NCBI GenBank assembly: GCA_013298955.1
Contig: JAAFJT010000007.1
Span: forward strand, 21,160 to 85,159
Direction: 5' to 3'
Length of the DNA stretch: 64,000 nucleotides
From: Chitinophagales bacterium
GTDB taxonomy: Bacteria; Bacteroidota; Bacteroidia; Chitinophagales; Saprospiraceae
The notes under the pieces are model-generated. The model saw nothing but the letters and a program-made list of their open reading frames with translations. It had not been told where the DNA came from and did not search any database. Within the stretch, counting starts at the first letter, position 1, and every line of letters starts with the position of its first letter. Shown piece after piece: positions 8,920 to 61,297 of this stretch. Both the position numbers and the translations under genes were made by a program.

Positions 8920-9465
8920 AGGTCACATAGGGGCGATACGCGCCTATATGTGGTCAGTGTGATACGCGCTAATGCGACCTACATAGGCGCGTATTATACC
9001 TACATATACATAGGCGCGTATAACACTACATAGGCGCGTATAACTACATAGGCGCGTATAATACCTATGTGACCTATAAAGACCTATGTGACCTATGTGT
9101 TTTAGGCGCGTATAACTACATAGGCGCGTATAATACCTATGTGACCTATAAAGACCTATGTGACCTATGTGTTTTAGGCGCGTATAACTACATAGGCGCG
9201 TATAAAAGACCTATGTGACCTATGTGTTTTAGGCGCGTATAACTACATAGGCGCGTATAATACCTATGTGACCTATAAAGACCTATGTGACCTATGTGTT
9301 TTAGGCGCGTATAACTACATAGGCGCGTATAATACCTATGTGACCTATAAAGACCTATGTGACCTATGTGTTTTAGGCGCGTATAACTACATAGGCGCGT
9401 ATAACTACATAGGCGCGTATAACACCTATGTGAGCTATAAAAACCTATGTGACCTATGTGTTTAA
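8891..9465. repeat. repeat island: about 72-bp tandem units built from TAGGCGCGTAT and GACCTAT sub-repeats, bounded by 26-bp perfect (about 42-bp imperfect) inverted repeats
   Basis: TTAAACACATAGGTCACATAGGTTTT (8891-8916) is the exact reverse complement of 9440-9465. Unit starts are spaced 72, 55, 72 and 72 bp (AGGCGCG at 9104, 9176, 9231, 9303, 9375). Confidence 0.9.
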
Positions 9466-11040: not shown

Positions 11041-11194
11041 TGGTTTTGGATACAATTGGAACGCGGATGACGCGGATTGAACGGGTGAGCGCGGATTTTT
11101 TTTGAAATTCAGTGCAAAATCCGTGAAAATTCAAAAAAAATCCGTGAAAATTCGCCCAATCCGCGTTATCCGTGTTCCCATTGTATCATCAAAA
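11041..11194. repeat. CGGAT-family palindromic element, copy B (GGATACAATTGG-terminus subtype with an internal extra module)
   Basis: TGGTTTTGGATACAATTGGAACGCGGATGACGCGGATT ... AATCCGCGTTATCCGTGTTCCCATTGTATC. The inner about 100 nt are nearly identical to copy C. Confidence 0.85.
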
Positions 11195-23228: not shown

Positions 23229-23317
23229 GGGCATGTAACAAAATTAGTAGTTGGGAAATTTATTTCACGTGTATCACGTGAAATAAATTTCCCAACTACT
23301 AATTTTGTTACATGCCC
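23229..23317. repeat. 89-nt perfect palindrome (43-nt arms, 3-nt centre) between convergent genes
   Basis: GGGCATGTAACAAAATTAGTAGTTGGGAAATTTATTTCACGTG-tat-exact reverse complement. Confidence 0.95.
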
Positions 23318-23363: not shown

Positions 23364-25046
23364 TTATGGTGATTTTCGTTTAAAAATCTCTGTAACGACG
23401 CAAGAATCACTGGATATATCTTGATTTAAATGTTTCCAGCGCAAATCTGGTGGCGAAAATGGTTTGGATAAATCTTTATATATTTTGCCAATCATATCAT
23501 AATCATTGCAAAATTGTTTTTTCCAATGATTTAAATAATTGGAAGTGACTTGATTATGAGTTTTACTATTAATCTGATAGCTGTAAATAAAAATTTTTGG
23601 ACGAGCTTTTTCTGTTTCTGTTACAAATTGTTTGGACATAGGAATAGCATAGGGCTGATGTTCTATCAATGGATAATGATATAGGAAACCCGTAGAAGCC
23701 ATTCGATTGGCATAAAAATAAACTTGAGGCTCGCCTCCAAGAATCCCGATTTTATCATTCGATTTTGTTAGACTAGGGAGCATCTTGCCAATTGAGCGCA
23801 TTTCTGTACATACGTCTCCATCGTACATATTCAACATAATTTCATTAGGAGACCAAAGAAAAAGATACCCAAATTGGGCAAGGATAAAGGCACAAAATCC
23901 CATTATTTGTAATTTTACAGGGTTTAATTGCCATTTTTGAGTGGTTTTTGCCCATAAAATGCAGCATCTTGCTATTCCCAAAGCGATTAATAAGGCTGCC
24001 GATGGAAACATGAGTTGAAAATAATGAGGGCGGTAATAGCCTCCTGGACAAACACAGGCAAAAGAACATGCAAAGAATAAAAGTAAAAATATGCGTAAGT
24101 GCAGGGATTTTGACTTGTTTTTATCAATTTTATCTGCCCATTTCGGCAACAATAAAACTCGAATTGCTGCAAAAAAGAGTATCCAGTGTACACAACTATT
24201 CCAAAAAATAGGGCGAAAATTAGATATATATTTCAAGGGCGGCGAAATTAAGGAGGTGTAAGCAGCCGCATATTTGAATGTTAAAAAGTAAAAAGGTTCA
24301 AATAGATGATTCTTGTATAAATACTCGCTTAACGCGATTGTTGGCAATAAACAACCGATTCCGAAAAAAAAGTAGCGAGTTATGAGTGTTTTTAGAAAGG
24401 AGCTATTGATTAAATTACTGAAATGGAATGTTTTAGGAGATTCTAAACTAATGAAACCAATCCAAAGCGTTGCGAAGAGAAGGTAGCCAAAAGCATGTTG
24501 TTTGGTTAGAAAAGCGGACATTAAGGCAATGCCTGCGCAAGTTAATAAGAAATTTTGCTTTGAAATTTCGTTTTTTTCAACATTGGATAACAGATAAATA
24601 CCTATCAAGGCTGGCAACAAAACAAAATGTTCTGAATTAGAAACCCAACCTTGTGCTTCATAAGTAAGGCTTAACAATAAATACACGGATGGTGCAATGA
24701 TACTTTCATCTGCTTTCAATTTTGTTTTGGCAATCAAATAGACCAATCCTGTATTAAAGAAATTGATACACATTGTTGCAAACCGAATGGCGATTGCATG
24801 ATGACCTAAGTATTTGATTATCAAGGCAAATGCAAAATAAGTACCAGGCATTTTCATATTATAAAAATCGTGGTAAGGCAACAACCCTTGTAAAATGGAT
24901 TGTCCTGCATACGCATATTCTCCTTCATCGCGCTCAAAGGCAATGTCCAATAAGCGGAGTCGGACATAGGCAACTAATAGAATTGCGAAAAGTAAAAATA
25001 ATCTATTGGGTTTTGCAAAAAAAATGCGAAATTTTTGATAATTCAT
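23364..25046 (-). CDS. polytopic membrane glycosyltransferase, GT-C fold (ArnT/PMT, GT39-like)
   Basis: More than 10 TM segments. First-loop motif FERDEGEYAYAGQSIL is typical of the ArnT/PMT family. Soluble C-terminal domain. Confidence 0.55.
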   Translation of the reverse strand: MNYQKFRIFFAKPNRLFLLFAILLVAYVRLRLLDIAFERDEGEYAYAGQSILQGLLPYHDFYNMKMPGTYFAFALIIKYLGHHAIAIRFATMCINFFNTGLVYLIAKTKLKADESIIAPSVYLLLSLTYEAQGWVSNSEHFVLLPALIGIYLLSNVEKNEISKQNFLLTCAGIALMSAFLTKQHAFGYLLFATLWIGFISLESPKTFHFSNLINSSFLKTLITRYFFFGIGCLLPTIALSEYLYKNHLFEPFYFLTFKYAAAYTSLISPPLKYISNFRPIFWNSCVHWILFFAAIRVLLLPKWADKIDKNKSKSLHLRIFLLLFFACSFACVCPGGYYRPHYFQLMFPSAALLIALGIARCCILWAKTTQKWQLNPVKLQIMGFCAFILAQFGYLFLWSPNEIMLNMYDGDVCTEMRSIGKMLPSLTKSNDKIGILGGEPQVYFYANRMASTGFLYHYPLIEHQPYAIPMSKQFVTETEKARPKIFIYSYQINSKTHNQVTSNYLNHWKKQFCNDYDMIGKIYKDLSKPFSPPDLRWKHLNQDISSDSCVVTEIFKRKSP

Positions 25047-25084: not shown

Positions 25085-25137
25085 GTAGTCGGGAGATTTA
25101 TTTCCCACTAATTAGTGGAAATAAATCTCCCGACTAC
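25085..25137. repeat. 53-nt near-perfect palindrome related to the 23229-23317 palindrome
   Basis: GTAGTCGGGAGATTTATTTCCCAC-taatta-GTGGAAATAAATCTCCCGACTAC (one bulged C). It shares the core GTAGTyGGGArATTTATTTC with the 23229 palindrome. Confidence 0.85.
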
Positions 25138-28219: not shown

Positions 28220-28364
28220 TGGTTTTGGATACAATTGGAACGCGGATGGAGCGGGTTAGCGCGGATTTTTTTTGAAATTCAGTGCAAAATTCGTAAAAAT
28301 TCAAAAAAAATCCGTGAAAATTCGCCCAATCCGCGTCATCCGCGTTCCAATTGTATTGCAAAAC
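28220..28364. repeat. CGGAT-family palindromic element, copy C (same subtype as copy B)
   Basis: TGGTTTTGGATACAATTGGAACGCGGATGGAGCGGG ... AATCCGCGTCATCCGCGTTCCAATTGTATTGCAAAAC. It ends 17 nt upstream of the ruvB ATG. Confidence 0.85.
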
Positions 28365-30858: not shown

Positions 30859-32211
30859 ATGAATAACATTTTGATTATTGGAGCAGGTCGCTCCTCTACG
30901 GCGTTGATAAATTACGTCCTCGAAAAAGCCAAATTTTATAATTGGTTTGTAACGGTAGCGGATGCGAACCACGAAGTCGCCCTTAAAAAAATTAATGGGC
31001 ATCCCAATGGACGCGGCACTTGGTTGGATGCAACGAAAGTCAATGACCGCCGTGAATTGATTCAACGCGCTGATGTGGTGGTTTCACTCTTGCCGCCGCA
31101 CCTTCATTTTGAAGTGGCGCAAGATTGTATTAAATTAAAACGGCATCTGATTACGGCTTCTTATATTTCAAAACAACTCTATGCGTTAGGCGATGAAGCC
31201 CGTTCTAAAGCATTGATTTTCATGGGCGAAATGGGGCTTGACCCCGGTATTGACCACATGAGTGGTAAACAAAAAATTGATGAAATTATTGCAAAAGGGG
31301 GGCGATTGAAATCATTTCGGTCTTACACAGGCGGTTTGGTCGCGCCTGAATCGGATGATAATCCTTGGCATTATAAGTTTACTTGGAATCCGCGCAATGT
31401 GGTTTTGGCAGGGCAGGGAACGGCGCAATATTTGGAAGAAGGCAAGTTGAAATACATTCCGTATAACAGACTGTTTACGCAATATCGTACCGTCAATGTG
31501 CCTAATATGGGCGAATGGGAAGCCTATCCGAATCGGGACTCGTTGTTATACAGAGAGTTGTATGATTTGGGTCCGATTCCCAATTTATTGAGAGGAACAT
31601 TGCGGCATAAAGGTTTTTGTGATGCTTGGAATGCGATCATTCAAATTGGGTTGACGGATGGCTCTTTTCCGATTTTGGATTCTGAAGAAATCACCTATCA
31701 CGAATTGATGGAATCTTTTGTTTCCAACAAAGCAACAGGTTCTTCGGTCAAGGAAAAAATTGCCAATATGTTGGGCGAACCTTCTGCGGATTCGCCTGTG
31801 ATGCAAAAATTGGAATGGCTTGGTTTGTTTCGGAAGAAAAAATTGCGTATCAAAAGTGCGACTCCTGCGTTGATTTTAGAACAATTATTGTTGGAAAAAT
31901 GGAAATTGAAAGATACCGAGCAGGATATGGTTATCATGCAGCACGAATTTGAATACGAATTGAACCGACAAATGCGGCGATTGACTTCCACATTGGTTTT
32001 GAAAGGAACGGATGGTAATAATACCGCGATGTCTCGATTGGTCGGTTTGCCGATTGGTATTTTTGTGAAATTAGTGATGTTGGGCAAAATTAATTCGATT
32101 GGGGTCAATATTCCTGTATTGAAAGAAGTTTATGAGCCTGTTTTAGAAGAATTAAAAGAATATGGAGTCATTTTTCAAGAAAAAGATGAAGTTCTAAAAG
32201 ATAAGGTGTAG
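30859..32211 (+). CDS. saccharopine dehydrogenase family oxidoreductase (LYS9-like)
   Basis: Rossmann motif ILIIGAGRSS. GLDPGIDHM motif. Confidence 0.8.
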   Translation: MNNILIIGAGRSSTALINYVLEKAKFYNWFVTVADANHEVALKKINGHPNGRGTWLDATKVNDRRELIQRADVVVSLLPPHLHFEVAQDCIKLKRHLITASYISKQLYALGDEARSKALIFMGEMGLDPGIDHMSGKQKIDEIIAKGGRLKSFRSYTGGLVAPESDDNPWHYKFTWNPRNVVLAGQGTAQYLEEGKLKYIPYNRLFTQYRTVNVPNMGEWEAYPNRDSLLYRELYDLGPIPNLLRGTLRHKGFCDAWNAIIQIGLTDGSFPILDSEEITYHELMESFVSNKATGSSVKEKIANMLGEPSADSPVMQKLEWLGLFRKKKLRIKSATPALILEQLLLEKWKLKDTEQDMVIMQHEFEYELNRQMRRLTSTLVLKGTDGNNTAMSRLVGLPIGIFVKLVMLGKINSIGVNIPVLKEVYEPVLEELKEYGVIFQEKDEVLKDKV

Positions 32212-32326
32212 AGCGAATTGAAACGCGGATGACACAGATTGGGCTGATTTTCGCGGATTTTTTGTTGTTTTAAAACAAAAAATCCGCGAAAATCAGCCCA
32301 ATCTGTGTCGTCCGCGTTCCAATTCT
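32209..32326. repeat. CGGAT-family palindromic element, copy D (GAGCGAATTG-terminus subtype); overlaps the stop codon of the upstream gene
   Basis: TAGAGCGAATTGAAACGCGGATGACACAGATTGGGCTGATTTTCGCGGATTTTTT ... mirror image. Confidence 0.9.
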
Positions 32327-35797: not shown

Positions 35798-35946
35798 AGG
35801 ATACAATTGGAACACGGATGACGCGGATTTTCGCGAATTTTTAACCTTGCATAGATTTTTATTTTTATAATAGATTAAGATTCAAAAATAAAAAAAATCC
35901 GCGAAAATTCGCCCAATCCGCGTCATCCGCGTTCCAATTGTATCCT
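35798..35946. repeat. CGGAT-family palindromic element, copy E (left arm internally truncated)
   Basis: AGGATACAATTGGAACACGGATGACGCGGATTTTCGCG ... AATCCGCGAAAATTCGCCCAATCCGCGTCATCCGCGTTCCAATTGTATCCT. It starts 5 nt after the stop codon. Confidence 0.85.
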
Positions 35947-36138: not shown

Positions 36139-37758
36139 ATGGATTTATATTTGATAAAATCATTTATACCTCCTTTTTTTGTGGCTTTTTGCATTGCTTT
36201 ATTCGTGTTAGTGATGCAATTTTTATGGGTTTATATCGACGAAATCATGGGAAAAGGACTGACCTTTTTCGAGTTGACCGAATTGGTTTTCTACCTTTCG
36301 ATGACCATGGTTCCGAATGCCCTTCCGTTAGGCGTATTGATTTCGAGCGTCATGGTTTTAGGGAATTTAGCAGAACGATACGAATTGGCGGGTTTAAAAT
36401 CAGCAGGCATTTCCTTGACACGTATTATGCTGCCGTTAGCGATAACCGCTTTTTTGATTGCTTGCGGTTCTCTTTTTGTGTCTGATAGGGTGATTCCTTG
36501 GGCAAATTTGCAATTTCACTCTCGTTTTTACGACATTCGCAAGGCAAAACCAACCCTTGCCTTTGAAGAAAATGTGTTTAATGACGAATTTCAAGATTAT
36601 ACCATGCGCATTGGCAAAAAAAGTGCGGATGGCAGGCAATTGAAAGATGTGATGATTTACGGGAATCAAAGCAGTGGGAATGCCGATTTGGTCAATCAAA
36701 TCATGGCAAAACAAGGCGAAATGTTCACTACCAAAGACCGTCAATATATTGTTATGAACCTCCAAGATGGGGTTCAATACCAAGAAACGATGAATAATAG
36801 AGATGGCGTAAAACATTATCCTTTTGTTAGAATCAAATTTAAATCATGGCAAAAAATATTTGATTTAACCCAATTTGAACGCCAAAATACCAATCAAGAA
36901 TTGTTTAAAGGACATCAAAAAATGCTTACGACCACTCAATTGGGCAAAGCCATTGATTCGATTGAACAAGTTGGGATTGGTGGACGGTGTATGGAATTGA
37001 AAGTCAATACTTTAGATTATTATCGGGCTTTCAAACGCAAAGCGGGTTCGGCTGAAAAAGCTGCGCCGAGTTCAGGGGGCGGTGTCGTTTCAACGGTTAA
37101 CACGATGTCTTCGACCACCGCAATAGACACCGCGAAGGCAAAAGCAAAACCTTCCAAGATTCAGCACATAATGGATTCGATGTCTAATAGTCGCTTATCA
37201 GAAACGCCTTTTTCAAAAATTGGAGCTACGGCGGTAGCGAATACGCCACTCGTGAAGCCTTCTAAATGGTATGTTGCGCAATTTGATTCCATTGATTTGA
37301 TTCCGTCCGACCAAAAAGGAGGGGTGCGCAATCGGGCGGACTCGTATATACGCGGCGTGCAAAGCAGTATTGAATCGACCTTGCAATCGTTGTCGATTAC
37401 GAGTAAATCGTTGTCCAAATTTATCTATGAATTGCATTTGAAATACAGTATTGCCGCAATTTGCTTTATTTTCCTGTTTATTGGTGCGCCGATGGGGGCA
37501 ATTGTGCAAAAAGGGGGCTTTGGTTATCCGATTTTGGTGGCGATATTCTTTTTTATGTTATACATGATTGCAATGATTTATTGCAAAAATTTGAATGATG
37601 TGCAAGCCGTACCTGCGATTTGGGCGGCATGGATTCCGTGTTTGGTGATGTTGCCGATGGGCTGCATTTTAACTTGGCGAGCGATGAATGATTATAAAAT
37701 CCTGCAAATCGATTTTACCAAATGGATTCCAAAACGATTTAGACAACCAACGGTGTAG
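36139..37758 (+). CDS. LptF/LptG family permease (YjgP/YjgQ) with a long periplasmic insert
   Basis: MDLYLIKSFIPPFFVAFCIALFVLVMQFLW is typical of LptF/G. The C-terminal TM triplet is present. ATG 36139 is preferred over the upstream ATG 36043. Confidence 0.75.
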   Translation: MDLYLIKSFIPPFFVAFCIALFVLVMQFLWVYIDEIMGKGLTFFELTELVFYLSMTMVPNALPLGVLISSVMVLGNLAERYELAGLKSAGISLTRIMLPLAITAFLIACGSLFVSDRVIPWANLQFHSRFYDIRKAKPTLAFEENVFNDEFQDYTMRIGKKSADGRQLKDVMIYGNQSSGNADLVNQIMAKQGEMFTTKDRQYIVMNLQDGVQYQETMNNRDGVKHYPFVRIKFKSWQKIFDLTQFERQNTNQELFKGHQKMLTTTQLGKAIDSIEQVGIGGRCMELKVNTLDYYRAFKRKAGSAEKAAPSSGGGVVSTVNTMSSTTAIDTAKAKAKPSKIQHIMDSMSNSRLSETPFSKIGATAVANTPLVKPSKWYVAQFDSIDLIPSDQKGGVRNRADSYIRGVQSSIESTLQSLSITSKSLSKFIYELHLKYSIAAICFIFLFIGAPMGAIVQKGGFGYPILVAIFFFMLYMIAMIYCKNLNDVQAVPAIWAAWIPCLVMLPMGCILTWRAMNDYKILQIDFTKWIPKRFRQPTV

Positions 37759-37966
37759 AGCGAATTGGAACGCGGATGACGCAGATAGGGCGAATTTATA
37801 CATTGCGGCGGGTGGTTTTGGATACAATTGGAACGCGGATGACGCAGATAGGGCGGATTTTCACGGATTTTTTTAAAAAAAAACAAAAAATCCGTGAAAA
37901 TCCGCCTATCTGCGTCATCCGCGTTCCAATTTATATCCTTCGTAGTTTCAATTTATATCCTTCGTA
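37756..37966. repeat. composite CGGAT-family locus (copy F): an orphan left arm, then a complete element, then an 18-nt flank duplication
   Basis: Orphan left arm at 37756-37795 (GAGCGAATTGG type). Full element at 37813-37937 (GGATACAATTGG type). CAATTTATATCCTTCGTA occurs twice (37927 and 37949). Confidence 0.85.
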
Positions 37967-38004
37967 ATTTTAGTTAAAAGTTCCATCTTTTTTTAATCTT
38001 TTTT

Positions 38005-43995: not shown

Positions 43996-44706
43996 ATGTA
44001 TAGAAATCCAATTTTCATTAACCTTTTTTGCACCTTTTTACTTTTACCCTTAGCAAGTCAAGCACAACGTTTTGAAACGGGTCTTCATGCTGGATTTAGC
44101 TATTTTATGGGCGACATCACAGACCGCATGAATGCCATCAATGTCGGTTTTGGCGGACATTTTACGTATTGCCCACATCCCAAAATAGCAGCGCGCCTTG
44201 ATTTGATGAATCTATTTCTCTCAGGAGATGATAAAGGTTCTCCGAGCGCGTATAAACAAAATCGAGGTTTTAAGTTTTTATACAATGTACAGGAAGTCAG
44301 TTTAATGGGGGAATTACGCCCGTTTGATAGCGATAAATTGAGTCATATCGGGCATTTTGAACAAAGTATCACACCTTACGGATTTGGAGGCGCAGGCTTA
44401 TTGACCCGAGTGAGTGGTAAAGCACAAGCACCTTTGGTGGAAACTTCACCGTTTCCAGAAGCAGGCGATACGAAAACGACTTTCCCTTTTTTGATTGGCG
44501 GTGGCGGTTTGCGTTGGCATTTCGCACAGCGTTATAAATTGAGTGCCGAAGGCAGTGGTCGCTATTACTTTTCGGATTATGTGGATGGTATCAGTAATTC
44601 GGCAAACCCGAAAAGCAAAGATTTATCTTTTTTTGGCAATTTGACGCTCACTTATATTTTGGATATGCCGATTGGTGTGCGCAAACGCAATTGGTTTTTA
44701 TTGTAA
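43996..44706 (+). CDS. outer-membrane beta-barrel protein (DUF6089-like)
   Basis: Signal peptide ..LLLPLASQAQ. Alternating amphipathic strands. GLHAGFSYFMGDI start. Confidence 0.55.
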   Translation: MYRNPIFINLFCTFLLLPLASQAQRFETGLHAGFSYFMGDITDRMNAINVGFGGHFTYCPHPKIAARLDLMNLFLSGDDKGSPSAYKQNRGFKFLYNVQEVSLMGELRPFDSDKLSHIGHFEQSITPYGFGGAGLLTRVSGKAQAPLVETSPFPEAGDTKTTFPFLIGGGGLRWHFAQRYKLSAEGSGRYYFSDYVDGISNSANPKSKDLSFFGNLTLTYILDMPIGVRKRNWFLL

Positions 44707-45010
44707 ATGTTGTAAATTGGAACGCGGATGACACCGATTGGGCTGATTTTCGCGGATTTTTTAAAAAAAAATCCGCGAAAATCCGCCCAATCCGTACCAT
44801 CCGCGTTCCAATTTATAACACGCCCCAACTTACTTTGGATGTGCCGATTGGTGTGCGCAAACGAAATTGGTTTTTATTGTAAATGTTGTAAATTGGAACG
44901 CGGATGACACCGATTGGGCGGATTTTCGCGGATTTTTTTTTAAAAAATCCGCGAAAATCCACCCACTCTGCGTCATCCGCGTTCCAATTTATAACACGCC
45001 CCAACTTACT
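44659..45010. repeat. 176-bp tandem duplication (44659-44834 and 44835-45010); each unit is the last 48 nt of the DUF6089 gene (15 codons plus stop) plus one CGGAT-family element (copies H1 44714-44813 and H2 44890-44989)
   Basis: TTGGAT[A/G]TGCCGATTGGTGTGCGCAAACG[C/A]AATTGGTTTTTATTGTAAATGTTGTAAATTGGAACGCGG... repeats with period 176. Confidence 0.9.
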
Positions 45011-51289: not shown

Positions 51290-54115
51290 ATGAAAAATTT
51301 TACGATTTTAATGAGCATTTTGCTCGCCTCCTGTATGCAGCGCGTGCAAGCACAGGTCACTTGTAACCCTGTTTTTCCGTGTACAGACGATGTTGTTTCC
51401 ATTTATTACAATGCCAATGAAGGAAATCGCGCCCTTGCGAATGAAACAGGTGATATTTTTATGCATGCGGGCGTACTTACGAGTACCAGTACGGGCCCAG
51501 GTGATTGGAAATTTGTGCGCACCACTTGGGGTTCAACCGATACGGCATTTAGAATGTGGCCACTTGGGAATGGCATTTACGCGAAAAGTTATAATATTCG
51601 CTCTTTTTACAACATTCCACAAGGGGAAACGGTGTTGAAATTAGCTTTTGTTTTTCGGAATGGCGCAGGTTCAACGGTGGGCAGAACGGCTGATGGAAGC
51701 GATATTTTTTACGATTTAGGTTGTAATGGTGCGGCGTTTCAAACCTTGGTGCTTCAGCCCAACTCTACAAGCCTATTGACAACGATTGGGGCAACGATTC
51801 CTTTCAAAGGAGCCGCTTCTGCGAATGCAACCCTCTCCTTGAAAGATAATAATACGGTTTTAACAACGGTCAACAATGCGCGTAACTTGGATTACACCCT
51901 CAATGTGGCAACTGGGGGCAATCATACGGTTCAATTTATCGCTAATAATGGCGGCACAGAGGTCATCAAATCGTTTAGTTACACGATTCCAAATACGACG
52001 GTGGTGCGCGACGCGCCGCAAGGCACTCAATTAGGCGCGAATATCAATGCAGCAGGCACGTCTGTAACGTTGATGTTGCAAGCTCCGAATAAAAATAATG
52101 TATTTGTTTTAGGCAGTTTCAACAATTGGCAATTAGACACCGCCTATCAAATGTATAGAACAACGGATGGAAAATCGTGGTGGAAAACCATCCCACTTAA
52201 TTCGGGTACGATTTACACGTACCAATATTTGGTGGATGGCACGATTAAAATCGCAGACCCGTTAAGTACGTTGATATTAGACCCTGTTGGCGATAAGTCG
52301 ATTTCGGCTGTTACGTATCCGAATCTGCCTGCGTATCCGACAAATAAAACGACTGGTTATGTTTCGGTTTTGGAGCCGGGCAAAGCACCTTACACTTGGC
52401 GCGTTCCCAATTTCCAACGCCCGCCCAAACAAGATTTGATTATTTACGAATTATTAGTGCGTGATTTTGTCGCAAGACACGATTATCAAACCTTGATTGA
52501 TAGTATTAATTACCTTAAATCATTGAAAATCAATGCAATCGAATTAATGCCCGTTCAAGAATTTGATAATAATGAAAGTTGGGGTTACAATCCGAATTTC
52601 CATAACGCATTGGATAAATATTATGGAACAGCCGATAAATTTAAAGAATTTATTGATGTTTGCCATCAAAACGGAATTGCCGTGATTATTGATGTCGTGT
52701 TCAATCATGCTTGGGGAACCAGTCCTTTGACAAAATTATATTGGGATGCAGCGAATAATCGCCCCGCAGCAGATAATCCTTGGTTGAATCCTGTGGAAAA
52801 ACACCCGTATAATGTGGGTTATGATTTCAATCATGAAAGCGAATATACGCGCAATTACATGTTTCGTTGTTTGAAAAACTGGTTGGCTGAGTACAATATT
52901 GATGGCTATCGATTTGATTTATCCAAAGGTTTTACCCAAAAAAATACGTTAGGCGATGTAAACGCATGGGGTGTGTATGACCCATCTCGGGTGAATATTT
53001 GGAATCGTATTTACGATTCGGTACAAGCGTTTAATGCAGGTGCTTATGTGATTTTGGAACATTTGGGCGATAATGAGGAAGAAAAAGTCATGGCGAATCG
53101 CGGCATGATGACTTGGGGGAATATGTGGTATAGTTACAAACAATTTACCATGTGTTGGCCCAATAATCAATTAAAAGGCGTTTCTTCACAGGGGAGAGGT
53201 TGGACGGTTCCACATTTGGTTGGTTATATGGAAAGCCATGATGAACAACGAAATATGTATGAAAATATTAACTATGGCAATAGTGGACAAACGCCGATTT
53301 ATGATATTAAAAACCTTGAAACGGCTCTAAAACGGGTTGAATTAGCGAATGCGTTTTTCTACACCGTTCCCGGTCCAAAAATGTTGTGGCAATTTGGGGA
53401 AATGGGTTATGATATTAGCATTGATTTCAATGGTCGAGTGGGCAATAAACCGATTCGCTGGGATTATTTGACGCAACCTGCCCGCAAGCGGTTGTATGAT
53501 GTTACCCGAAATATCATTCATTTGCGCACCTCGAATCAAACCATTTTTAGAGATGGCACTTATAATTCAGATGATTTAAATGTTGAATACGCGAAGCATT
53601 TTCACGTCAGTCATCCGAATATGAACACCACTATTATTGGAAATGGCGGCATTATTGCAACGGATATCGTTCCTTATTTTCAAAATACTGGTACTTGGTA
53701 CAACTATTTGACAGGCGAAACGGTCAATATTACTTCTACAACGGCTCCAATTCGGTTGTTGCCGGGTGAATATCGGATTTACACGAGCGTCCGCCAACCT
53801 GTGCCACCTGCGGGCTACGTCAATTTCCCGAATGGCGATGCTAAAATCGTTGAATTATTAAATGATTTTCAAATCTATCCCAATCCAAGCGTTGCCAACG
53901 CGCCCTCGTATTTGGGTTATTCTTTGAAACAATCGGCTGATATTCAATGGTCTGTAATCAATCAAGTGGGGCAAATCGTTTATCAATCGGCTGTAACGCG
54001 TAGAAATGCGGGCAGTCACCAAGATAATTTAATCCCAGATTTGGCTTCTGGAACGTATATGATTCGATTGAATATCAACGGAGCTATCGTCACCCAAAAA
54101 TGGACGGTACAATAG
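51290..54115 (+). CDS. GH13 alpha-amylase family enzyme with a CBM48-like module and a T9SS C-terminal sorting domain
   Basis: GH13 regions I DVVFNHA, II DGYRFDLSKGF, IV YMESHDE. CBM-like VLGSFNNWQ...YQYLVDG. C-terminal FQIYPNPS... tail. Signal peptide present. Confidence 0.85.
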   Translation: MKNFTILMSILLASCMQRVQAQVTCNPVFPCTDDVVSIYYNANEGNRALANETGDIFMHAGVLTSTSTGPGDWKFVRTTWGSTDTAFRMWPLGNGIYAKSYNIRSFYNIPQGETVLKLAFVFRNGAGSTVGRTADGSDIFYDLGCNGAAFQTLVLQPNSTSLLTTIGATIPFKGAASANATLSLKDNNTVLTTVNNARNLDYTLNVATGGNHTVQFIANNGGTEVIKSFSYTIPNTTVVRDAPQGTQLGANINAAGTSVTLMLQAPNKNNVFVLGSFNNWQLDTAYQMYRTTDGKSWWKTIPLNSGTIYTYQYLVDGTIKIADPLSTLILDPVGDKSISAVTYPNLPAYPTNKTTGYVSVLEPGKAPYTWRVPNFQRPPKQDLIIYELLVRDFVARHDYQTLIDSINYLKSLKINAIELMPVQEFDNNESWGYNPNFHNALDKYYGTADKFKEFIDVCHQNGIAVIIDVVFNHAWGTSPLTKLYWDAANNRPAADNPWLNPVEKHPYNVGYDFNHESEYTRNYMFRCLKNWLAEYNIDGYRFDLSKGFTQKNTLGDVNAWGVYDPSRVNIWNRIYDSVQAFNAGAYVILEHLGDNEEEKVMANRGMMTWGNMWYSYKQFTMCWPNNQLKGVSSQGRGWTVPHLVGYMESHDEQRNMYENINYGNSGQTPIYDIKNLETALKRVELANAFFYTVPGPKMLWQFGEMGYDISIDFNGRVGNKPIRWDYLTQPARKRLYDVTRNIIHLRTSNQTIFRDGTYNSDDLNVEYAKHFHVSHPNMNTTIIGNGGIIATDIVPYFQNTGTWYNYLTGETVNITSTTAPIRLLPGEYRIYTSVRQPVPPAGYVNFPNGDAKIVELLNDFQIYPNPSVANAPSYLGYSLKQSADIQWSVINQVGQIVYQSAVTRRNAGSHQDNLIPDLASGTYMIRLNINGAIVTQKWTVQ

Positions 54116-54121
54116 TAGTAC

Positions 54122-54227
54122 TATTGAAACGCGGATGACGCAGATTGGGCGGATTTTCACGGATTTTTTTATAAAAAAATCCGTGAAAATCCGCCCAATC
54201 TGCGTCATCCGCGTTCCAATTCGCTCG
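54122..54227. repeat. CGGAT-family palindromic element, copy I (cleanest compact copy)
   Basis: TATTGAAACGCGGATGACGCAGATTGGGCGGATTTTCACGGATTTTTTT-ata-AAAAAAATCCGTGAAAATCCGCCCAATCTGCGTCATCCGCGTTCCAATTCGCTC. Confidence 0.9.
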
Positions 54228-54263
54228 TAAGATTCCAATTTATTTATAAAATAAGAACTCAAT

Positions 54264-55901
54264 ATGTCAACAACTCAACAACATCCAAAAGGTTTGCGTT
54301 TCTTGTTTTTAACCGAAATGTGGGAGCGATTCGGTTACTATCTGATGATAGGGATTTTCATGCTCTATATGAAAGACACGCAAAAAGGTGGACTTTCCAT
54401 TCCGCACAAAGAAGCAACCGATATTTTTGGCACTTTCATCGCCTTAGTCTATGTAACGCCCTTCATCGGCGGCATGCTTGCGGATAGAGTATTAGGTTAT
54501 CGGCGTTCCATCATCATTGGGGCAACCTTGATGGGTTTCGGCTATTTGGGACTTGCCATACAAGGTATGACGGCTTTTTGGATTTCTTTGCTGCTCATCA
54601 TTCTTGGAAATGGCTTTTTCAAACCCAATATTTCCATTTTATTGGGCAATTTGTACAATGATGAACCTTACAAGGCACATAAAGATACAGGTTACAATAT
54701 TTTCTATATGGGCATCAATGTCGGTGCGTTTATATGCAATTTTTTTGCAGCCTATTTGCGCAACACTTTTAGTTGGGGACACGCGTTTGCCGCAGCAGGA
54801 GTGGGCATGTTTATCGGTTTAGCAGTATTCATTTTGGGTGATAAACATTATGCACACGCAGACATTCAAGCTAAAAAGCAGGAAAATGAACAATCAATTG
54901 CTGTCGTGATGAGTTCCGTTTTGATACCTGCTATTCTGGCGGGCGTATTGGGCTGGATGATTCCGGGCAATATTTTTGGTTCGGATTCGACCGATGCTTT
55001 TTTGATAGCCTGTTTGCCAATCATTGCTTTTTATTTGAATATATGGTTTAAAGCAGCCGCACATGAACGCGAACCGATTGCGGCTTTATTGGCGATTTAC
55101 GCAGTTGTGATTGTTTTTTGGGCAATTTTCAAACAAAATGGTACGACATTGACGAATTGGGCAGAATATTATACGGATAGAGCCGTTCCAACGATGTTGC
55201 AAACGCCCGCAGATGCATTGGGCATGACCCAAACATTGACGGCTAAAAAAGACAGTTTCCCCCATTACGATTCCAAATTTCGCGCTCCAAAAGATGCCGC
55301 AGGAAAGGTTGTGAAAACGTATTCGACGCATCCATACTTTATCAACGCGCCCGCGACATTGCCCGCAGAAGGCAAATCGGTCCAATTATTTTCAACCGAA
55401 TTATTTCAATCCATCAACCCATTTTTCGTCGTTGTTTTAACGCCTTTTGTGGTTTGGTTTTTTGGACGCTTACGCAAACGAAATATAGAACCGACAACCG
55501 CTACTAAAATAGCAGGTGGATTATTCATTTCTGGGCTTTCGACCATTATCATGGTTTTTGCCGTTTTAGCTTGTCATAACGGATTGGATAAAAGTTCGAT
55601 TGGCTGGTTATTTGGAACGTATGGCGTAATCACCGTAGGCGAATTATTTTTAAGTCCGATGGGTTTATCCTTAGTTTCCAAACTCGCACCTGTACGCATT
55701 TCCGCGCTCATGATGGGCGGTTGGCAATTAGCGACTGCGATTGGTAATAAATTATCAGGCGTTTTAGCAGGTTTATGGGATGGTTATGAAGATAAAACTA
55801 CTTTTTTTTGGACGAATACAGGGATGATATTTGCGGCGGCGGCGGTTATTTTCGTCATGTTGCGCTGGTTAAATCGCATTATTCGACAATATGTCGTTTA
55901 A
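54264..55901 (+). CDS. POT/PTR2 family peptide:proton symporter
   Basis: PTR2 signature FLFLTEMWERFGYYLMIGI plus a second motif GNGFFKPNIS. Confidence 0.9.
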   Translation: MSTTQQHPKGLRFLFLTEMWERFGYYLMIGIFMLYMKDTQKGGLSIPHKEATDIFGTFIALVYVTPFIGGMLADRVLGYRRSIIIGATLMGFGYLGLAIQGMTAFWISLLLIILGNGFFKPNISILLGNLYNDEPYKAHKDTGYNIFYMGINVGAFICNFFAAYLRNTFSWGHAFAAAGVGMFIGLAVFILGDKHYAHADIQAKKQENEQSIAVVMSSVLIPAILAGVLGWMIPGNIFGSDSTDAFLIACLPIIAFYLNIWFKAAAHEREPIAALLAIYAVVIVFWAIFKQNGTTLTNWAEYYTDRAVPTMLQTPADALGMTQTLTAKKDSFPHYDSKFRAPKDAAGKVVKTYSTHPYFINAPATLPAEGKSVQLFSTELFQSINPFFVVVLTPFVVWFFGRLRKRNIEPTTATKIAGGLFISGLSTIIMVFAVLACHNGLDKSSIGWLFGTYGVITVGELFLSPMGLSLVSKLAPVRISALMMGGWQLATAIGNKLSGVLAGLWDGYEDKTTFFWTNTGMIFAAAAVIFVMLRWLNRIIRQYVV

Positions 55902-56582
55902 TGGAGGCATTTTGAGCGAATTGGAACGCGAATGACGCAGATTGAGCGGATTTTCACGGATTTTTTTTAAAATCCGCGAAAATCCGCCCAATATTTTCGT
56001 CATGTTGCGCTGGTTAAATCGCATTATTCGACAATATGTCGTTTAATGGAGGCATTTTGAGCGAATTGGAACGCGGATGACGCAGATTGTTTTTTAAAAT
56101 CCGCGAAAATCCGCCCAATATTTTCGTCATGTTGCGCTGGTTAAATCGCATTATTCGACAATATGTCGTTTAATGGAGGCATTTTGAGCGAATTGGAACG
56201 CGGATGACGCAGATTGGGCGGATTTTCACGGATTTTTTTTAAAATCCGCTAAAATCCGCCCAATATTTTCGTCATGTTGCGCTGGTTAAATCGCATTATT
56301 CGACAATATGTCGTTTAATGGAGGCATTTTGAGCGAATTGGAACGCGAATGACGCAGATTGAGCGGATTTTCACGGATTTTTTTTAAAATCCGCGAAAAT
56401 CCGCCCAATATTTTCGTCATGTTGCGCTGGTTAAATCGCATTATTCGACAATATGTCGTTTAATGGAGGCATTTTGAGCGAATTGGAACGCGGATGACGC
56501 AGATTGAGCGGATTTTCACGGATTTTTTTTAAAATCCGCGAAAATCCGCCCAATCTGCGTCATCCGCGTTCCAATTCGCTCG
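55848..56582. repeat. tandem array x5 (unit 145 bp; one 127-bp variant); each unit is the last 54 nt of the POT gene, a 13-nt spacer and a right-arm-truncated CGGAT element. Only the last unit carries the complete right arm.
   Basis: ATTTTCGTCATGTTGCGCTGGTTAAATCGCATTATTCGACAATATGTCGTTTAATGGAGGCATTTTGAGCGAATTGGAACGCG... starts at 55848, 55993, 56120, 56265 and 56410. Confidence 0.95.
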
Positions 56583-57743
56583 CTATTGTATCGTTTTCAA
56601 TAATTCGGATGCTTCATCATGTCTTTCACCACTTTCTTTACCATGTTCGATGGCATTATTTAACACTTTTTGAGCGCACCGTTCTTCGCCCATTTTCACA
56701 TATAATTGAGCTAAGGTCAAAAAATACAGTTGTTTTTTCTCTTTTTGCAAGGCTCTTTTAGCCCATTTGACCGCTTTTTTCAACATTTTGGGGTCATCCA
56801 CTACTTCATAAAACGTTTGAGCCGTCTCATTCAATTCTTCCGCACTATCCTCAAATTGTTTGAAATACTGAACCGCAGCATTCGCATAATTCGTTCTATC
56901 GCCCTTCAATCGATAATAAGTCATCTGATAATTAGGAATCATGCGTTTTGCCTTTTTCGGGTACGTCAAAGCAATCAAAGAATCGGCAATAGGCAACGGC
57001 GGTAACGCTTTTTCATTATGCAATTTATCCGTTAATAGGTTTTGAATTTTAATTTCAATATCAGATTTACCAAAAATATTTTGAAAAGTATCCTTATTTT
57101 CCACCAAAAAACGATATAAAGGCGTATCGGTCGTTTCCACCATACGATAAATCAACCCTAAATGGGCTTGACTGCGCCAATCGGTTTGTGTATTCAAGTA
57201 GGTTTCCACGATTTTGATACACTTCGGGTCTTGTGCATCAGATAATTTTTGAATATAATTTCTCAAAAAAAGAGCATCACGATTCCCCGTTGCAAAACGG
57301 TTATTCCATGCGTCAAGCCTGTCTTCTTGATTCAAGGCAGCTTTCCCAAGTTGTAAAAAAACATCTATTTCTTGAAAACCCACAGCCCGATGCACCGCTT
57401 TTCCAGTAGCATTGATGAACAAAAAAGTGGGATAGGCTTTGATTTGATACGCCTGAGCGAGCGCGAGTCCATCGCCTTTTTCCATATCCATCTTGACATT
57501 GATAAATTGTTCATTATAAAAACGACTTATTTTGGGATGGGTAAAAACATCGCGGTTCATGGCTTTACAAGGCGCACACCAAGTGGTGTATGCGTCCAAA
57601 AAAATCAATTTTTCATATTTTTTAGCACTATCTAAGGCAGTTTGCCAATTTTCATGGATAAATTGAATGCCTTTTGTGGGGTTCGACTGCGCAAAAAGAA
57701 CTTTTGGCAGGAAACAAAAGAGGAGCAACCGAATATAACTCAT
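56583..57743 (-). CDS. secreted thioredoxin-fold protein (WCAPC) with a helical repeat C-terminal domain
   Basis: Signal peptide. DAYTTWCAPCKAM CxxC motif. Paralogue of ORF 57899-59068. Confidence 0.75.
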   Translation of the reverse strand: MSYIRLLLFCFLPKVLFAQSNPTKGIQFIHENWQTALDSAKKYEKLIFLDAYTTWCAPCKAMNRDVFTHPKISRFYNEQFINVKMDMEKGDGLALAQAYQIKAYPTFLFINATGKAVHRAVGFQEIDVFLQLGKAALNQEDRLDAWNNRFATGNRDALFLRNYIQKLSDAQDPKCIKIVETYLNTQTDWRSQAHLGLIYRMVETTDTPLYRFLVENKDTFQNIFGKSDIEIKIQNLLTDKLHNEKALPPLPIADSLIALTYPKKAKRMIPNYQMTYYRLKGDRTNYANAAVQYFKQFEDSAEELNETAQTFYEVVDDPKMLKKAVKWAKRALQKEKKQLYFLTLAQLYVKMGEERCAQKVLNNAIEHGKESGERHDEASELLKTIQ

Positions 57744-57774
57744 AGTTTCAATTAATTAAAATAATATACGCACG

Positions 57775-57885
57775 TAGAGCAATTGGAACGCGGATGACAC
57801 GGATTTGGCAGATTTTCGCGGATTTTTTTAACAAAAAATCCGTGAAAATCCGCCCAATCCGTGTCATCCGCGTTCCAATAGTATC
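57775..57885. repeat. CGGAT-family palindromic element, copy K, between the two thioredoxin-fold paralogues
   Basis: TAGAGCAATTGGAACGCGGATGACACGGATTTGGCAGATTTTCGCGGATTTTTTT ... AATCCGTGAAAATCCGCCCAATCCGTGTCATCCGCGTTCCAATAGTATC. Confidence 0.9.
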
Positions 57886-57898
57886 ACAAAAAAAATAT

Positions 57899-59068
57899 TT
57901 AACCTTTTATTTGAAGAATTAAATTTTCAATACCCGGAATGGATTGTGGTTGAGCTGCTTTTGCCAATTCTAATGCCTTATTTGCAGCTGTCAACGCATC
58001 TTTTTTCTTATTGTTTTTAAACAAAATCGTCGAATACGTGTAATAATAATGCACCAAACCACCATTTTCTGCCGCTTTACTGGCATATTTTTCTGCTTGG
58101 GTCAATACATTTTTATCTGTTGCAAAATCACTTTCCATGCGTTTTGCCAATTGATATAATTGATTAGCATCCTTTTTAGCCACTTTTTTAGCACAATTAT
58201 TACACGCACGAAGATATTGCTTGATTTCACCTGCTGCTTGATAATACGAAATATCTGCTTCTACTTCAAAAGCATCATATCTATCAGGTACATTTTGTTT
58301 CAATTTCGTTTTCGCTTCTTGCAACAAGGCTTCACTTTTAAATTGTTTGGCATTTTCCAATGTTTTTAAACACGCCGTTTCAATTTTATTTTGAAACATC
58401 ATTTCACTATACAATCCTTTAATTTTGACCTGATGTCTCAATAGCAAATCAAAAACTTTAGAATCCGCCTGAGTGGTACCTTCATAAATGAGTTTCAAAA
58501 CAGCAGGATTATTAAAATCAGGATTTTTATTTAAAAAATCATTCACCATTTTCAAACTCGGCTTGCCTGACCGATTCAAAGAGCGCACATAGCGCACCAT
58601 AAAATCGGGGTCGCGTTTTCCTGCGGCATACTCTTTTTCCAATTCTTTGGCATTATCGGCTTTTGCCAACGCATTTTTCGCCAACGTCAAAAATTCATCC
58701 GACATCAAACCGCCCACACCCGCTTGCACCAATTCACCCTTGCCATTGATAAACAACAAAGTCGGATAAGCAGAAACATTGAAACGACCCGAAAGGGCTT
58801 GTCCTTCCCCCTTTTCCATGTCCATTTTGACATTGACAAAGTTTTGATTGAAGAAATTGCCGACTTTTTCCTCTTTGAAAACGGTTGCCGCCATGCGTTT
58901 GCAGGGACCACACCATTCCGCAAAGGCATCCATAAAGACCAATTTATCTTCTTTTTTGGCTTTTTCGACGGCTTCCGCAAACGTGCCGTGAAAAAAATCG
59001 ATGCCTTGACCCTGCATCAACGACACAAACATTAAACCAATCACACTTGTAACAATTGCTTTTTTCAT
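57899..59068 (-). CDS. secreted thioredoxin-fold protein (WCGPC) with a helical repeat C-terminal domain
   Basis: Signal peptide MKKAIVTSVIGLMFVSLMQGQ. DAFAEWCGPCKRM. Same architecture as ORF 56583-57743. Confidence 0.75.
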   Translation of the reverse strand: MKKAIVTSVIGLMFVSLMQGQGIDFFHGTFAEAVEKAKKEDKLVFMDAFAEWCGPCKRMAATVFKEEKVGNFFNQNFVNVKMDMEKGEGQALSGRFNVSAYPTLLFINGKGELVQAGVGGLMSDEFLTLAKNALAKADNAKELEKEYAAGKRDPDFMVRYVRSLNRSGKPSLKMVNDFLNKNPDFNNPAVLKLIYEGTTQADSKVFDLLLRHQVKIKGLYSEMMFQNKIETACLKTLENAKQFKSEALLQEAKTKLKQNVPDRYDAFEVEADISYYQAAGEIKQYLRACNNCAKKVAKKDANQLYQLAKRMESDFATDKNVLTQAEKYASKAAENGGLVHYYYTYSTILFKNNKKKDALTAANKALELAKAAQPQSIPGIENLILQIKG

Positions 59069-59093
59069 AGCTTGAACACCTATTTTTAAGAAT

Positions 59094-59861
59094 TTAAAAC
59101 ATTTTTAAATGCTGCGTTTTGACGGGTACATTCGTTGTATGAGCAACATTTTTTTGGCTCAATAACGCGCCAGATAGACACATTTGTTGCAATTCGTCCA
59201 AAGTTCCATTAAAAACATTTAAATCGACATACGAATTGCGAATCCCGCGTAAGCGACCGCGTTCTCCATATTGCCAGAAAATCCATTCGACTCCTGCGGC
59301 TAATTGTGGTTCATTTTTGCTGTAATGCCCAATCCAAAGCGGATAATCTTTAAATTCAGCCGCCAAATACTTGTTATAAAACTGATAAGGCGTGTAAATA
59401 ATCGGTTGAATATTATATTCCGCTTTTATCAATTGTAAAAATTCTTTCAATTGTTTCACAATTTCCTCTCGCTCCATGTTATCAGTCACTTCTACATCAA
59501 TGACGGGCGGCAAATCGCCGTATTCCAAAATCACTGTATTGATATAATTACGTGCCTGTTCTTCGGGCGGCAGTGACGGACGGAAAAAATGATACGCACC
59601 GCGTTTGATTTTGACCCGTTTGGATTCTGCCCAATTCCGCCCAAACATCGTATCTATGTGCCTACGACCTTCAGTAGCCTTCATAAAAGCAAATTGAATG
59701 TTCTGTGCAGCGATCGTATCCCACCGAATTTTTCCTTGATGATGCGATACATCAATGCCTTGCACCGTGTAACGAATGGGCAAAATGCGTTCCGTATCAG
59801 TCTTACAAGCCGTCAGACTGATGATTTGAGTGATTAAAAATAGGTAAAAAATAGGTTTCAC
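59094..59861 (-). CDS. GH25 lysozyme/muramidase, probable lipoprotein
   Basis: GIDVSHHQGKIRWD, FMKATEG and GAYHFF are GH25 motifs. A GTG start at 59861 gives (M)KPIFYLFLITQIISLTAC with a lipobox. The track ORF extends to 60005 and there is an alternative ATG at 59942. Confidence 0.75.
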   Translation of the reverse strand: MKPIFYLFLITQIISLTACKTDTERILPIRYTVQGIDVSHHQGKIRWDTIAAQNIQFAFMKATEGRRHIDTMFGRNWAESKRVKIKRGAYHFFRPSLPPEEQARNYINTVILEYGDLPPVIDVEVTDNMEREEIVKQLKEFLQLIKAEYNIQPIIYTPYQFYNKYLAAEFKDYPLWIGHYSKNEPQLAAGVEWIFWQYGERGRLRGIRNSYVDLNVFNGTLDELQQMCLSGALLSQKNVAHTTNVPVKTQHLKMF

Positions 59862-60103
59862 AATAATTGGGACAATATTTAAATATGGTAAAATGGATGT
59901 TATATTGGGAAAGAACGAAAAAAATACGTTTTTTTCGCACATTCTTTTCAACGTGAAAAAAGTTAATAAAGTGTTAAAAGTACGCTTTAATTTGCAGACT
60001 TCCAAATATTTTTACAAAACATTGATAATCAATTTTTTATAAAAATATTTTTTAAATAAACTGATTTTTTTAATCTAAAAATCAATCCTAAATTTACAGC
60101 ATC

Positions 60104-61297
60104 ATGCTTTCGCAAAGACAATTGTTTTTAAAACATGTTGCCCAAACCAGTGCATTTCCACTCCTGTTGGAAATAGAACGTGCAGAAGGGCTTTATTTGT
60201 ATGACCATAAAGGAAAATCATATATTGATTTGATTGCAGGTATTGGCGTAAGTGCTTTGGGGCATCGACATCCTGCGGTGCTGAAAGCTGTCATAGAGCA
60301 ATCTGAAAAGTATTGGCATACAATGGTTTATGGAGAGTTTGTATTGTCGCCACAGGTGCGTTTGGCAACGCTTTTGGCAGCACATACGGCTCCAAATTTA
60401 GATAGTGTTTATTTCACTAATTCTGGAACGGAGGCAGTAGAAGGGGCAATGAAATTGGCGAAACGCTACACAGGTCGAACCGAAATTATTTCGGCTTATA
60501 ATGCCTATCATGGCAGTACGCAAGGTGCATTAAGTCTGAATAGTGACCCTTATTTTACCCAATCTTTTCGCCCCTTATTACCAGATATTCAACATATTAC
60601 GTATAATGATTTAAATGATTTAAATACAATTTCAACTAAAACGGCTGCGGTCATCATCGAAGTCATTCAAGCAGAAGCTGGCATTTACCCAAGTTCGACA
60701 GCGTATTTACAGGCGTTGCGCAAGCGTTGTACTGAAACGGGTACTTTACTGATTTTTGATGAAATCCAAACAGGCATGGGACGAACCGGTACGTTGTGGG
60801 CATTTCAACGTTATAAGGTGGTGCCAGATGTTTTGTTGAGTGCGAAAGGGCTTGGTGGTGGATTGCCGATAGGGGCGTTTATATCCTCTAAAAAAATCAT
60901 GTCTGCTTTGACCGATGAACCTATTTTGGGACATATTACGACTTTTGGCGGACATCCATTGAGTGCGGCGGCGGCTTTCGCAACGTTAAAAACGCTTTTA
61001 GAAACGGATTTAATAAACCAAGTCGCTGAAAAATCACTTTTATTTCAACAAAAACTGAAACATCCATTGATTCAAGCGGTTCGCGGCAGTGGTTTAATGC
61101 TTGCCGTCGAATTATCTGATTTTGATATGGTGCAAAAAGTAATTGCGCGATGCCTTGAAAATGGTTTATTGACAGATTGGTTTTTATTTAACAATAAATG
61201 TTTGAGAATCGCACCGCCCTTGACCATTACGGTTGCTGAGATAGAAAGGGCATGTGCTATTTTATTAGAAGCAATTGAAAAAGTTCCTATAAATTAG
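60104..61297 (+). CDS. class III PLP-dependent aminotransferase (acetylornithine/ornithine aminotransferase-like)
   Basis: FDEIQTGMGRTG. PLP lysine region LLSAKGLGGGLPIGA. NSGTEAVEGA. Confidence 0.85.
   Translation: MLSQRQLFLKHVAQTSAFPLLLEIERAEGLYLYDHKGKSYIDLIAGIGVSALGHRHPAVLKAVIEQSEKYWHTMVYGEFVLSPQVRLATLLAAHTAPNLDSVYFTNSGTEAVEGAMKLAKRYTGRTEIISAYNAYHGSTQGALSLNSDPYFTQSFRPLLPDIQHITYNDLNDLNTISTKTAAVIIEVIQAEAGIYPSSTAYLQALRKRCTETGTLLIFDEIQTGMGRTGTLWAFQRYKVVPDVLLSAKGLGGGLPIGAFISSKKIMSALTDEPILGHITTFGGHPLSAAAAFATLKTLLETDLINQVAEKSLLFQQKLKHPLIQAVRGSGLMLAVELSDFDMVQKVIARCLENGLLTDWFLFNNKCLRIAPPLTITVAEIERACAILLEAIEKVPIN

Follow-up and report, generated by a model that had tools for sequence, protein, structure and literature searches.

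How does the end of a protein-coding gene come to stand five times in a row in front of the stop codon of its neighbor? This question is raised by the 3' end of a POT/PTR2 peptide transporter gene (the POT gene) in a 64-kb stretch of DNA from a Chitinophagales bacterium (contig JAAFJT010000007.1), which was analyzed over its full length and is called the window here. The gene leads into a tandem array of five head-to-tail units (55848-56582), each of which joins the final 54 nt of the POT gene, through a spacer of 12 nt, to the first 79 nt of a palindromic element 106 bp in length. We consider the array to be a genuine, strain-polymorphic minisatellite (a locus resembling a variable-number tandem repeat [VNTR]), created by one illegitimate join and then subject to homology-driven expansion and contraction, and we put the probability of this reading at about 0.78. 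Direct head-to-tail units with one and the same junction at every boundary, and polymorphism of the locus among relatives, are both found.

The successive units (Table 1) start 145, 127, 145, and 145 nt apart, and Tandem Repeats Finder (TRF) scores the array 1236 at a period of 272 and 910 at a period of 145, with 98% matches. The four internal junctions do not differ from one another, the array is contiguous at both outer ends with unique sequence, and the fifth unit extends 27 to 28 nt past the unit length without a junction. The repeated gene tail, in its original position, is in frame with the POT gene and encodes IFVMLRWLNRIIRQYVV followed by the stop codon. Sequence alignment and TRF agree with the initial annotation on the head-to-tail amplification of a gene tail and a truncated element, on the unit starts and periods, on the 18-nt deletion in unit 2, and on the last unit being the only one to reach a complete right arm. 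Its unit composition needed two small corrections: the 54-nt gene tail stands, but the spacer measures 12 nt from the palindrome boundary, not 13, and the piece of right arm is 24 nt, not 23, its last T being ambiguous between both parents. The variants said to be shared by units 1 and 4 are part of a complete identity (145 of 145 positions); on this identity, which is its sole basis, a higher-order duplication of units is plausible. The units vary at alignment columns 84 (A/G), 98 (A/G), and 131 (G/T), and the lengths of their homopolymers are constant. The deletion in unit 2 lies between two GATT motifs, yet it is not an exact direct-repeat deletion. Minus-strand open reading frames (ORFs) of 40 to 51 amino acids within the array are the repeat read in one frame.

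An assembler could have expanded a single unit, as the initial annotation recognized, and the region is indeed repetitive and palindromic, with short-read contigs of the species breaking at the element. To compare assemblies, we made use of the fact that the window POT protein represents a 90%-identity cluster with 17 members, and contigs were located via exact-protein look-ups of these members. The window POT protein itself matched no recorded contig, and a metagenome contig collection scanned for the exact junction and for the exact boundary of gene tail and element gave no match; as L091 has both patterns, the collection evidently does not include the relevant contigs. One of them, L091 (JGI 3300081629), contains the POT tail, the spacer, the truncated element, and the junction CCGCCCAAT/ATTTTCGTCATG twice and ends in a third unit; a second, L094 (JGI 3300055046), contains the identical junction once before it ends. 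Both contigs thus end within the array, after at least 2.7 and at least 1.4 units, respectively, so that the composition of their units can be compared but not the length of their arrays. Because the same nonhomologous junction occurs in three data sets, two of them independent metagenome contigs from other samples, the duplication is biological and not made by an assembler. Moreover, the units in the window differ by substitutions and by the 18-nt deletion, with constant homopolymer lengths, and units 2 and 3 of L091, which crosses two junctions, carry one private variant each. An assembly artifact is therefore barely credible. The remaining short contigs show where assemblies of this organism fail. 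L092 (JGI 3300080921) ends within the first unit and has a 10-nt deletion in the arm, L001 and L002 encode an identical thioredoxin-fold protein and both break inside the element, and other short-read contigs of the organism end at the element or just past the neighboring stop codon. These breakpoints suggest that the 85-kb source contig of the window derives from long reads. In L094, positions 1 to 58, the POT gene begins at residue 36 (MKDTQ...) behind unrelated upstream sequence, which may be a rearrangement or a chimeric contig.

The locus is polymorphic. The second unit of L091 is 144 nt long with other variants, as opposed to the 127-nt deletion form in the window. Two contigs lack both the element and the array between the POT and thioredoxin-gene stop codons: L003, a contig of a metagenome-assembled genome (MAG) with 94 to 97% nucleotide identity to the window over 51626-61285, and L095 (JGI 3300043423), which has the gene order of L003 and is 94 to 97% identical to the window in the flanks. 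What stands between these two stop codons in both contigs is a 57-bp segment that contains an unrelated hairpin (GACTTGGAT...TTGGATTCTTTGGATTTTAAAAATCCAAAGAATCCAAGTC). A third haplotype, in L093, keeps the spacer and GAGCGAAT...CGCTC, with a different hairpin in between and different sequence downstream. Relatives at about 90% POT identity have wholly different genes downstream, with other CGGAT-rich palindromes after the stop codon. The array is thus one among several alleles that segregate in nature, and environmental populations include an empty allele as well as two alleles with alternative hairpins and several with arrays. Of the variation between strains that the initial annotation anticipated, presence or absence (absent from L003 and L095) and differences in unit sequence (variants in L091 and L094) are seen, while the full number of repeats can be read in the window only. 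As an observation on the POT 3' boundary itself, relatives with POT identities of 90% or higher have at least four different hairpins or elements at this place and three different genes downstream of it (L003, 4289-4347; L093, 1700-1760; and L083 to L090, downstream of POT). This variety of hairpins and downstream genes indicates that the boundary is a breakpoint of synteny and a hotspot for hairpin replacement and rearrangement.

Table 1. Positions in the window of the array, its parts, and the genes and repeats that bear on it
Feature	Position	Strand	Description
POT/PTR2 peptide transporter gene	54264-55901	+	ORF; Pfam PF00854 (PTR2), E 3.6e-56; last 54 nt (55848-55901) are the start of unit 1
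Unit 1	55848-55992	+	145 nt; made up of the genuine gene tail (55848-55901), a spacer (55902-55913), and element positions 1-79 as a truncated copy (55914-55992)
Unit 2	55993-56119	+	127 nt; 18-nt deletion removes left inner arm AGCGGATTTTCACGGATT
Unit 3	56120-56264	+	145 nt; keeps the G of the family consensus at alignment columns 84 and 98; T at column 131 is private
Unit 4	56265-56409	+	145 nt; identical to unit 1
Unit 5	56410-56554	+	145 nt; runs without a junction into the remainder of the right arm (56555-56581)
Complete element at the POT locus	56476-56581		Only full copy there; 106 bp; arms 56476-56526 and 56531-56581
Convergent thioredoxin-fold gene	56583-57743	-	ORF; stop codon 56583-56585, 1 nt from the element end
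Neighboring element copy	54123-54226		Upstream of POT; loop and right inner arm (CCGTG) differ from array units (CCGCG)
Neighboring element copy	57781-57879		Between two thioredoxin-fold genes; same site occupied in L003 and L095
Second array	44658-45009	+	176 bp, two copies, 164/176 identical (93%); between convergent DUF6089 and C25-peptidase genes

The junction bears on how the first duplication may have arisen. At every unit boundary, element position 79 is joined to POT sequence at a point that lies 54 nt ahead of the stop codon, and the only microhomology is a single T common to both parental sequences. As all junctions in the array are identical, the array has a single origin. The initial annotation had placed the exchange at a shared CGTCAT, and this fails. 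With CGTCAT as the point of alignment between gene (GGTTATTTTCGTCATG) and right arm (CCCAATCTGCGTCATC), a crossover predicts CCCAATTTTCG, while CCCAATATTTTCG is observed, which is 2 nt out of register. The similarity is also close to random expectation: when two breakpoints are drawn at random, a 6-mer common to both lies no more than 20 nt away in 8.4% of trials if any offset is allowed, and in 2.7% if the offset is at most 2. A crossover at CGTCAT was therefore rejected; the similarity may have helped misalignment, although it is statistically uncompelling.

One could also imagine that the gene tail was copied in two steps, with homologous exchange between element copies on either side of POT duplicating the whole gene and a later deletion leaving only the tail of the second copy. 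Element copies do lie on both sides of the gene (54123-54226 and 56476-56581), and the literature records duplications mediated by repetitive extragenic palindromic (REP) sequences as well as an amplification junction with a REP (PMC1428787). The loop and the arm show which copy was duplicated. The truncated copies and the downstream element share the loop T8A4, together with CCGCG in the right inner arm, whereas the upstream copy has T7ATA7 and CCGTG. Because the truncated copies share these variants with the local element, the upstream copy is no donor, and remodeling with donation from that copy was rejected. As this scheme also needs two events where one suffices, it is highly improbable.

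In the reading that we favor, one illegitimate join would have created the first 145-bp duplication. Probably the long palindrome provoked this join, by way of either a replication template switch at a stalled fork or break repair. With two 145-bp direct repeats in place, copy number could shift by replication slippage or unequal sister-chromatid exchange, and later point changes and the 18-nt deletion would have marked single units. Such a route, with a nonhomologous first join followed by homologous expansion, is established for bacterial amplifications (PMC1428787). A tandem duplication keeps an intact gene copy at each outer edge, and the junction of the POT array links only 3' fragments. 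Since the duplicated segment holds only 3' gene ends and noncoding DNA at a convergent pair, both genes are intact, and the array is probably near neutral, with little cost. Several points weigh against this reading. Neutrality is assumed. The first join is not reconstructible, as a 1-nt homology fits template switching, end joining, and topoisomerase-type illegitimate recombination alike. The whole array is visible in the window assembly alone, so that the variation seen is one of presence or absence and of unit sequence. Finally, the association of tandem repeats with the element described below comes from only four intergenic repeats in one 64-kb window.

What is the palindrome that was caught in the array? 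The complete copy has 51-nt arms around a 4-nt loop, with 96% complementarity, and its predicted hairpin energy as single-stranded DNA is -60.9 kcal/mol. It belongs to a family that is abundant in the window: a 33-nt arm motif matches 18 times where 0 matches are expected by chance, BLAST finds copies in 11 of the 36 intergenic gaps, and together they make up 15% of the intergenic DNA. Most copies lie 0 to 15 nt from a stop codon. When ten copies are aligned, 6 of the 46 predicted pairs have changed on both arms in a compensatory way, and hence the hairpin symmetry of the element is maintained. No window sequence matches an Rfam family at the gathering threshold, the only matches being generic long hairpins far below it. 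Among 80 Bacteroidota loci encoding POT homologues, the element is present only in the closest relative; an arm profile finds diverged versions in one distant MAG and in the relatives whose POT identity is about 90%. The element is thus a lineage-specific, high-copy intergenic palindrome.

Individual copies have histories of their own. Those at 11054-11178 and 28233-28352 have an inner stem expanded by 10- to 11-nt repeats (TRF, 11103-11151 and 28275-28323), and those at 618-751 and 35805-35939 have loop insertions of 40 to 50 nt. Two unrelated genes (32204-32218 and 37750-37765) share the gene end ...GGTGTAG/AGCGAATTG, with their TAG stop codons inside GTAGAGCGAATTGGAAC, the terminus of the element, which may thus be where these stop codons came from. 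At 57773 (57770-57783), this terminus occurs without a gene end.

A family that is both high copy and lineage specific could itself have driven the amplification. A hairpin-recognizing enzyme (for example, a RAYT/IS200-type HUH tyrosine transposase, RAYT standing for REP-associated tyrosine transposase, or one causing rolling-circle-type reinitiation) would nick the element and recopy adjacent DNA, and arrays of partial elements with captured flank would be a by-product of element mobility. GTAG is found within 22 nt outside 5 of about 24 element arms, compared with a background of 2.6%, and several local rearrangements cluster at element copies. A distant Bacteroidota MAG also points this way: in L066 (CALRVE020000002.1, 912-1272) there is an intergenic array of 2.3 copies of a 155-nt unit, with one arm-like motif (GGGAACGCTGATGACACGGATTGAACGGAT) per unit (nhmmer E values of 1e-7 to 2e-5), all in the same orientation and without an inverted partner. 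The element of the POT array itself has no GTAG beside either arm, and none of the 37 ORFs in the window has a Pfam match to a transposase family. These ORFs are those of an ordinary chromosome, with RuvB, YidC, RsmG, LptF/G, and hydrolases sorted by the type IX secretion system.

The second array in the window, which is of the same type, bears directly on such an enzyme. In each unit, the final 49 nt of the DUF6089 gene (43996-44706) are followed by a complete element and then by 22 nt of flank, and the array reaches as far as the first base of the stop codon in the convergent C25-peptidase gene. Its junction has a 1-nt microhomology, with a nearby 5-mer, ACTTA, out of register. The right breakpoint lies 22 nt past the element, as opposed to element position 79 in the POT array, and this difference argues against a site-specific cut; the four breakpoints of the two arrays have no common cleavage motif either. 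Amplification by an element-recognizing enzyme is therefore very unlikely. Contigs with the DUF6089 gene all end 6 to 41 nt from its stop codon.

Three of the four intergenic tandem repeats in the window with a period of at least 20 overlap element copies (P of about 0.013). This suggests that tandem repeats are concentrated at element copies, although the numbers are small. It would be a larger step to see in the family a general driver of local tandem duplication for this lineage, acting through hairpin-stalled replication or an element-associated nuclease and repeatedly making gene-end-capturing minisatellites in 3' untranslated regions (UTRs) that tune termination or mRNA stability at convergent pairs, with the two arrays in the window as examples. 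We regard this as unlikely. Two further rearrangements were seen next to an element. At 37758-37797, a truncated left arm has a private variant, GATAGGGCG, in common with the full copy 68 nt downstream (37826-37931), and a 22-nt sequence is duplicated in tandem (2.2 copies, 37923-37970) across the right end of that copy and its flank.

The array lies between convergent genes, and it does adjoin the stop codon of the thioredoxin-fold gene, as the initial annotation had it, with a 1-nt gap. Its units might be looked upon as terminator-like modules, extra copies of which would have been selected to insulate the convergent genes or to stabilize the POT mRNA. The join puts ATTTT directly after a 24-bp hairpin, the truncated units are predicted to fold into hairpins of their own followed by AUAUUUU, and the array is kept, with diverging units, in at least three sampled populations. 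A consensus terminator scan, which counts at most 20 pairs, found no site in 55848-56582, where the truncated units read as a hairpin followed by AATATTTTCG. Close relatives manage with a single 57-bp hairpin at this site, and a neutral repeat would persist equally. Selection for terminator modules would thus be quite unlikely as the cause of the amplification. Neither such selection nor systematic generation of arrays by the element family is required by any of the data.

The initial annotation also held that the half-hairpin in each unit can pair with other units. This is not what the folds predict, as each truncated unit forms its own local hairpin, of -19 to -27 kcal/mol as DNA. Whether folded as RNA or as DNA, the sequence pairs the orphaned outer part of the left arm with the gene tail that comes next. 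The fold with the actual tail has an energy of -26.6 kcal/mol, and random 26-nt tails taken from the window give a mean of -25.6 ± 2.1 kcal/mol. As 27% of the random tails are equally stable, we rejected a better-than-chance reconstruction of the missing right arm from the gene tail.

Two other repeats in the window are separate from the CGGAT element. A complex intergenic array at 8896-9460 is made up of two mutually reverse-complementary 9-mers (CACATAGGT and ACCTATGTG) and TACATAGGCGCGTATAA units; it is unrelated to the element, and TRF gives it periods of 72, 127, and 199, with 100% matches for the period of 199. At 23229-23317 there is a perfect palindrome whose arms are 43 nt long (...TTAGTAGTTGGGAAATTTATTTCACGTG), and at 25085-25137 a similar one with 21-nt arms (GTAGTCGGGAGATTTATTTCC); the two flank a 560-amino-acid ORF (23364-25046, minus strand) without a Pfam match. 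From their sequences, these two palindromes look like a separate, GTAG-containing hairpin family.

The POT locus is a well-documented natural case in which a long intergenic palindrome seeds a minisatellite that captures the 3' end of a gene. It also shows why short-read assemblies of this organism shatter into contigs of 1 to 2 kb at every element. The array could serve as a strain-typing marker for an uncultured freshwater lineage of Bacteroidota. In itself it is an ordinary bacterial minisatellite, and no new mechanism or system is revealed.

Bacterial minisatellites and VNTR loci, such as the mycobacterial interspersed repetitive units (MIRUs) that make up the MIRU-VNTR loci of Mycobacterium, consist of head-to-tail units of tens to hundreds of base pairs in intergenic DNA near gene ends, and they are polymorphic between strains through slippage or unequal exchange. 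The POT array resembles such loci in its intergenic head-to-tail units beside gene ends and in its strain polymorphism. It is unlike MIRUs in that its unit is a chimera of a gene 3' coding end and a truncated interspersed palindrome; moreover, MIRUs couple the stop and start codons of neighboring ORFs, which the POT array does not. Amplifications in Escherichia coli and Salmonella likewise have one low-homology junction at every boundary and pass from a nonhomologous to a homologous step, but their units are 7 to 32 kb long with microhomologies of 4 to 15 bp and were selected in the laboratory, whereas the POT array has 145-bp units, a 1-nt microhomology, and standing natural polymorphism (PMC1428787).

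Among interspersed palindromes, the element resembles in habit REP sequences and the bacterial interspersed mosaic elements (BIMEs) built from them, which are also abundant intergenic palindromes near stop codons, often between convergent genes, and can cluster (PMC3733652). REPs are imperfect palindromes of 20 to 40 bp with a GTAG or CGTC tag, and BIME arrays alternate in orientation and are without coding sequence; the element, in contrast, is 106 bp long and lacks a consistent GTAG or CGTC tag, and the 37 window ORFs include no RAYT gene (PMC3733652). The POT array is therefore not a REP/BIME cluster, since size, tag, and orientation pattern do not fit. [quoted passage not shown] BrickBuilt of Porphyromonas gingivalis is, like the element, a Bacteroidota intergenic repeat associated with a tandem array; there the minisatellite lies inside a MITE and its 23-nt array is part of the element at all copies, whereas the POT array is a single-locus duplication spanning an element and a gene end (PMC4596501). 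Related in sequence are CGGAT-rich hairpins of other Bacteroidota, found on a Runella slithyformis plasmid and in relatives L083 to L090. They have the same arm motif (...CGGATTTTCACGGAT.../...ATCCGTGAAAATCCG...) and the same place after stop codons, but about 78% or lower identity over part of the element and no array at those sites. On the plasmid (NC_015693.1, 95205-95278; L101, 1480-1575), the intergenic hairpin GGAACGCGGATTTTCACGGAT...ATCCGTGAAAATCCGCG...GTCATCCGTGTTCC follows an esterase gene and has 78% identity to part of the element by blastn, so that related CGGAT hairpins also exist in cultured Cytophagales.

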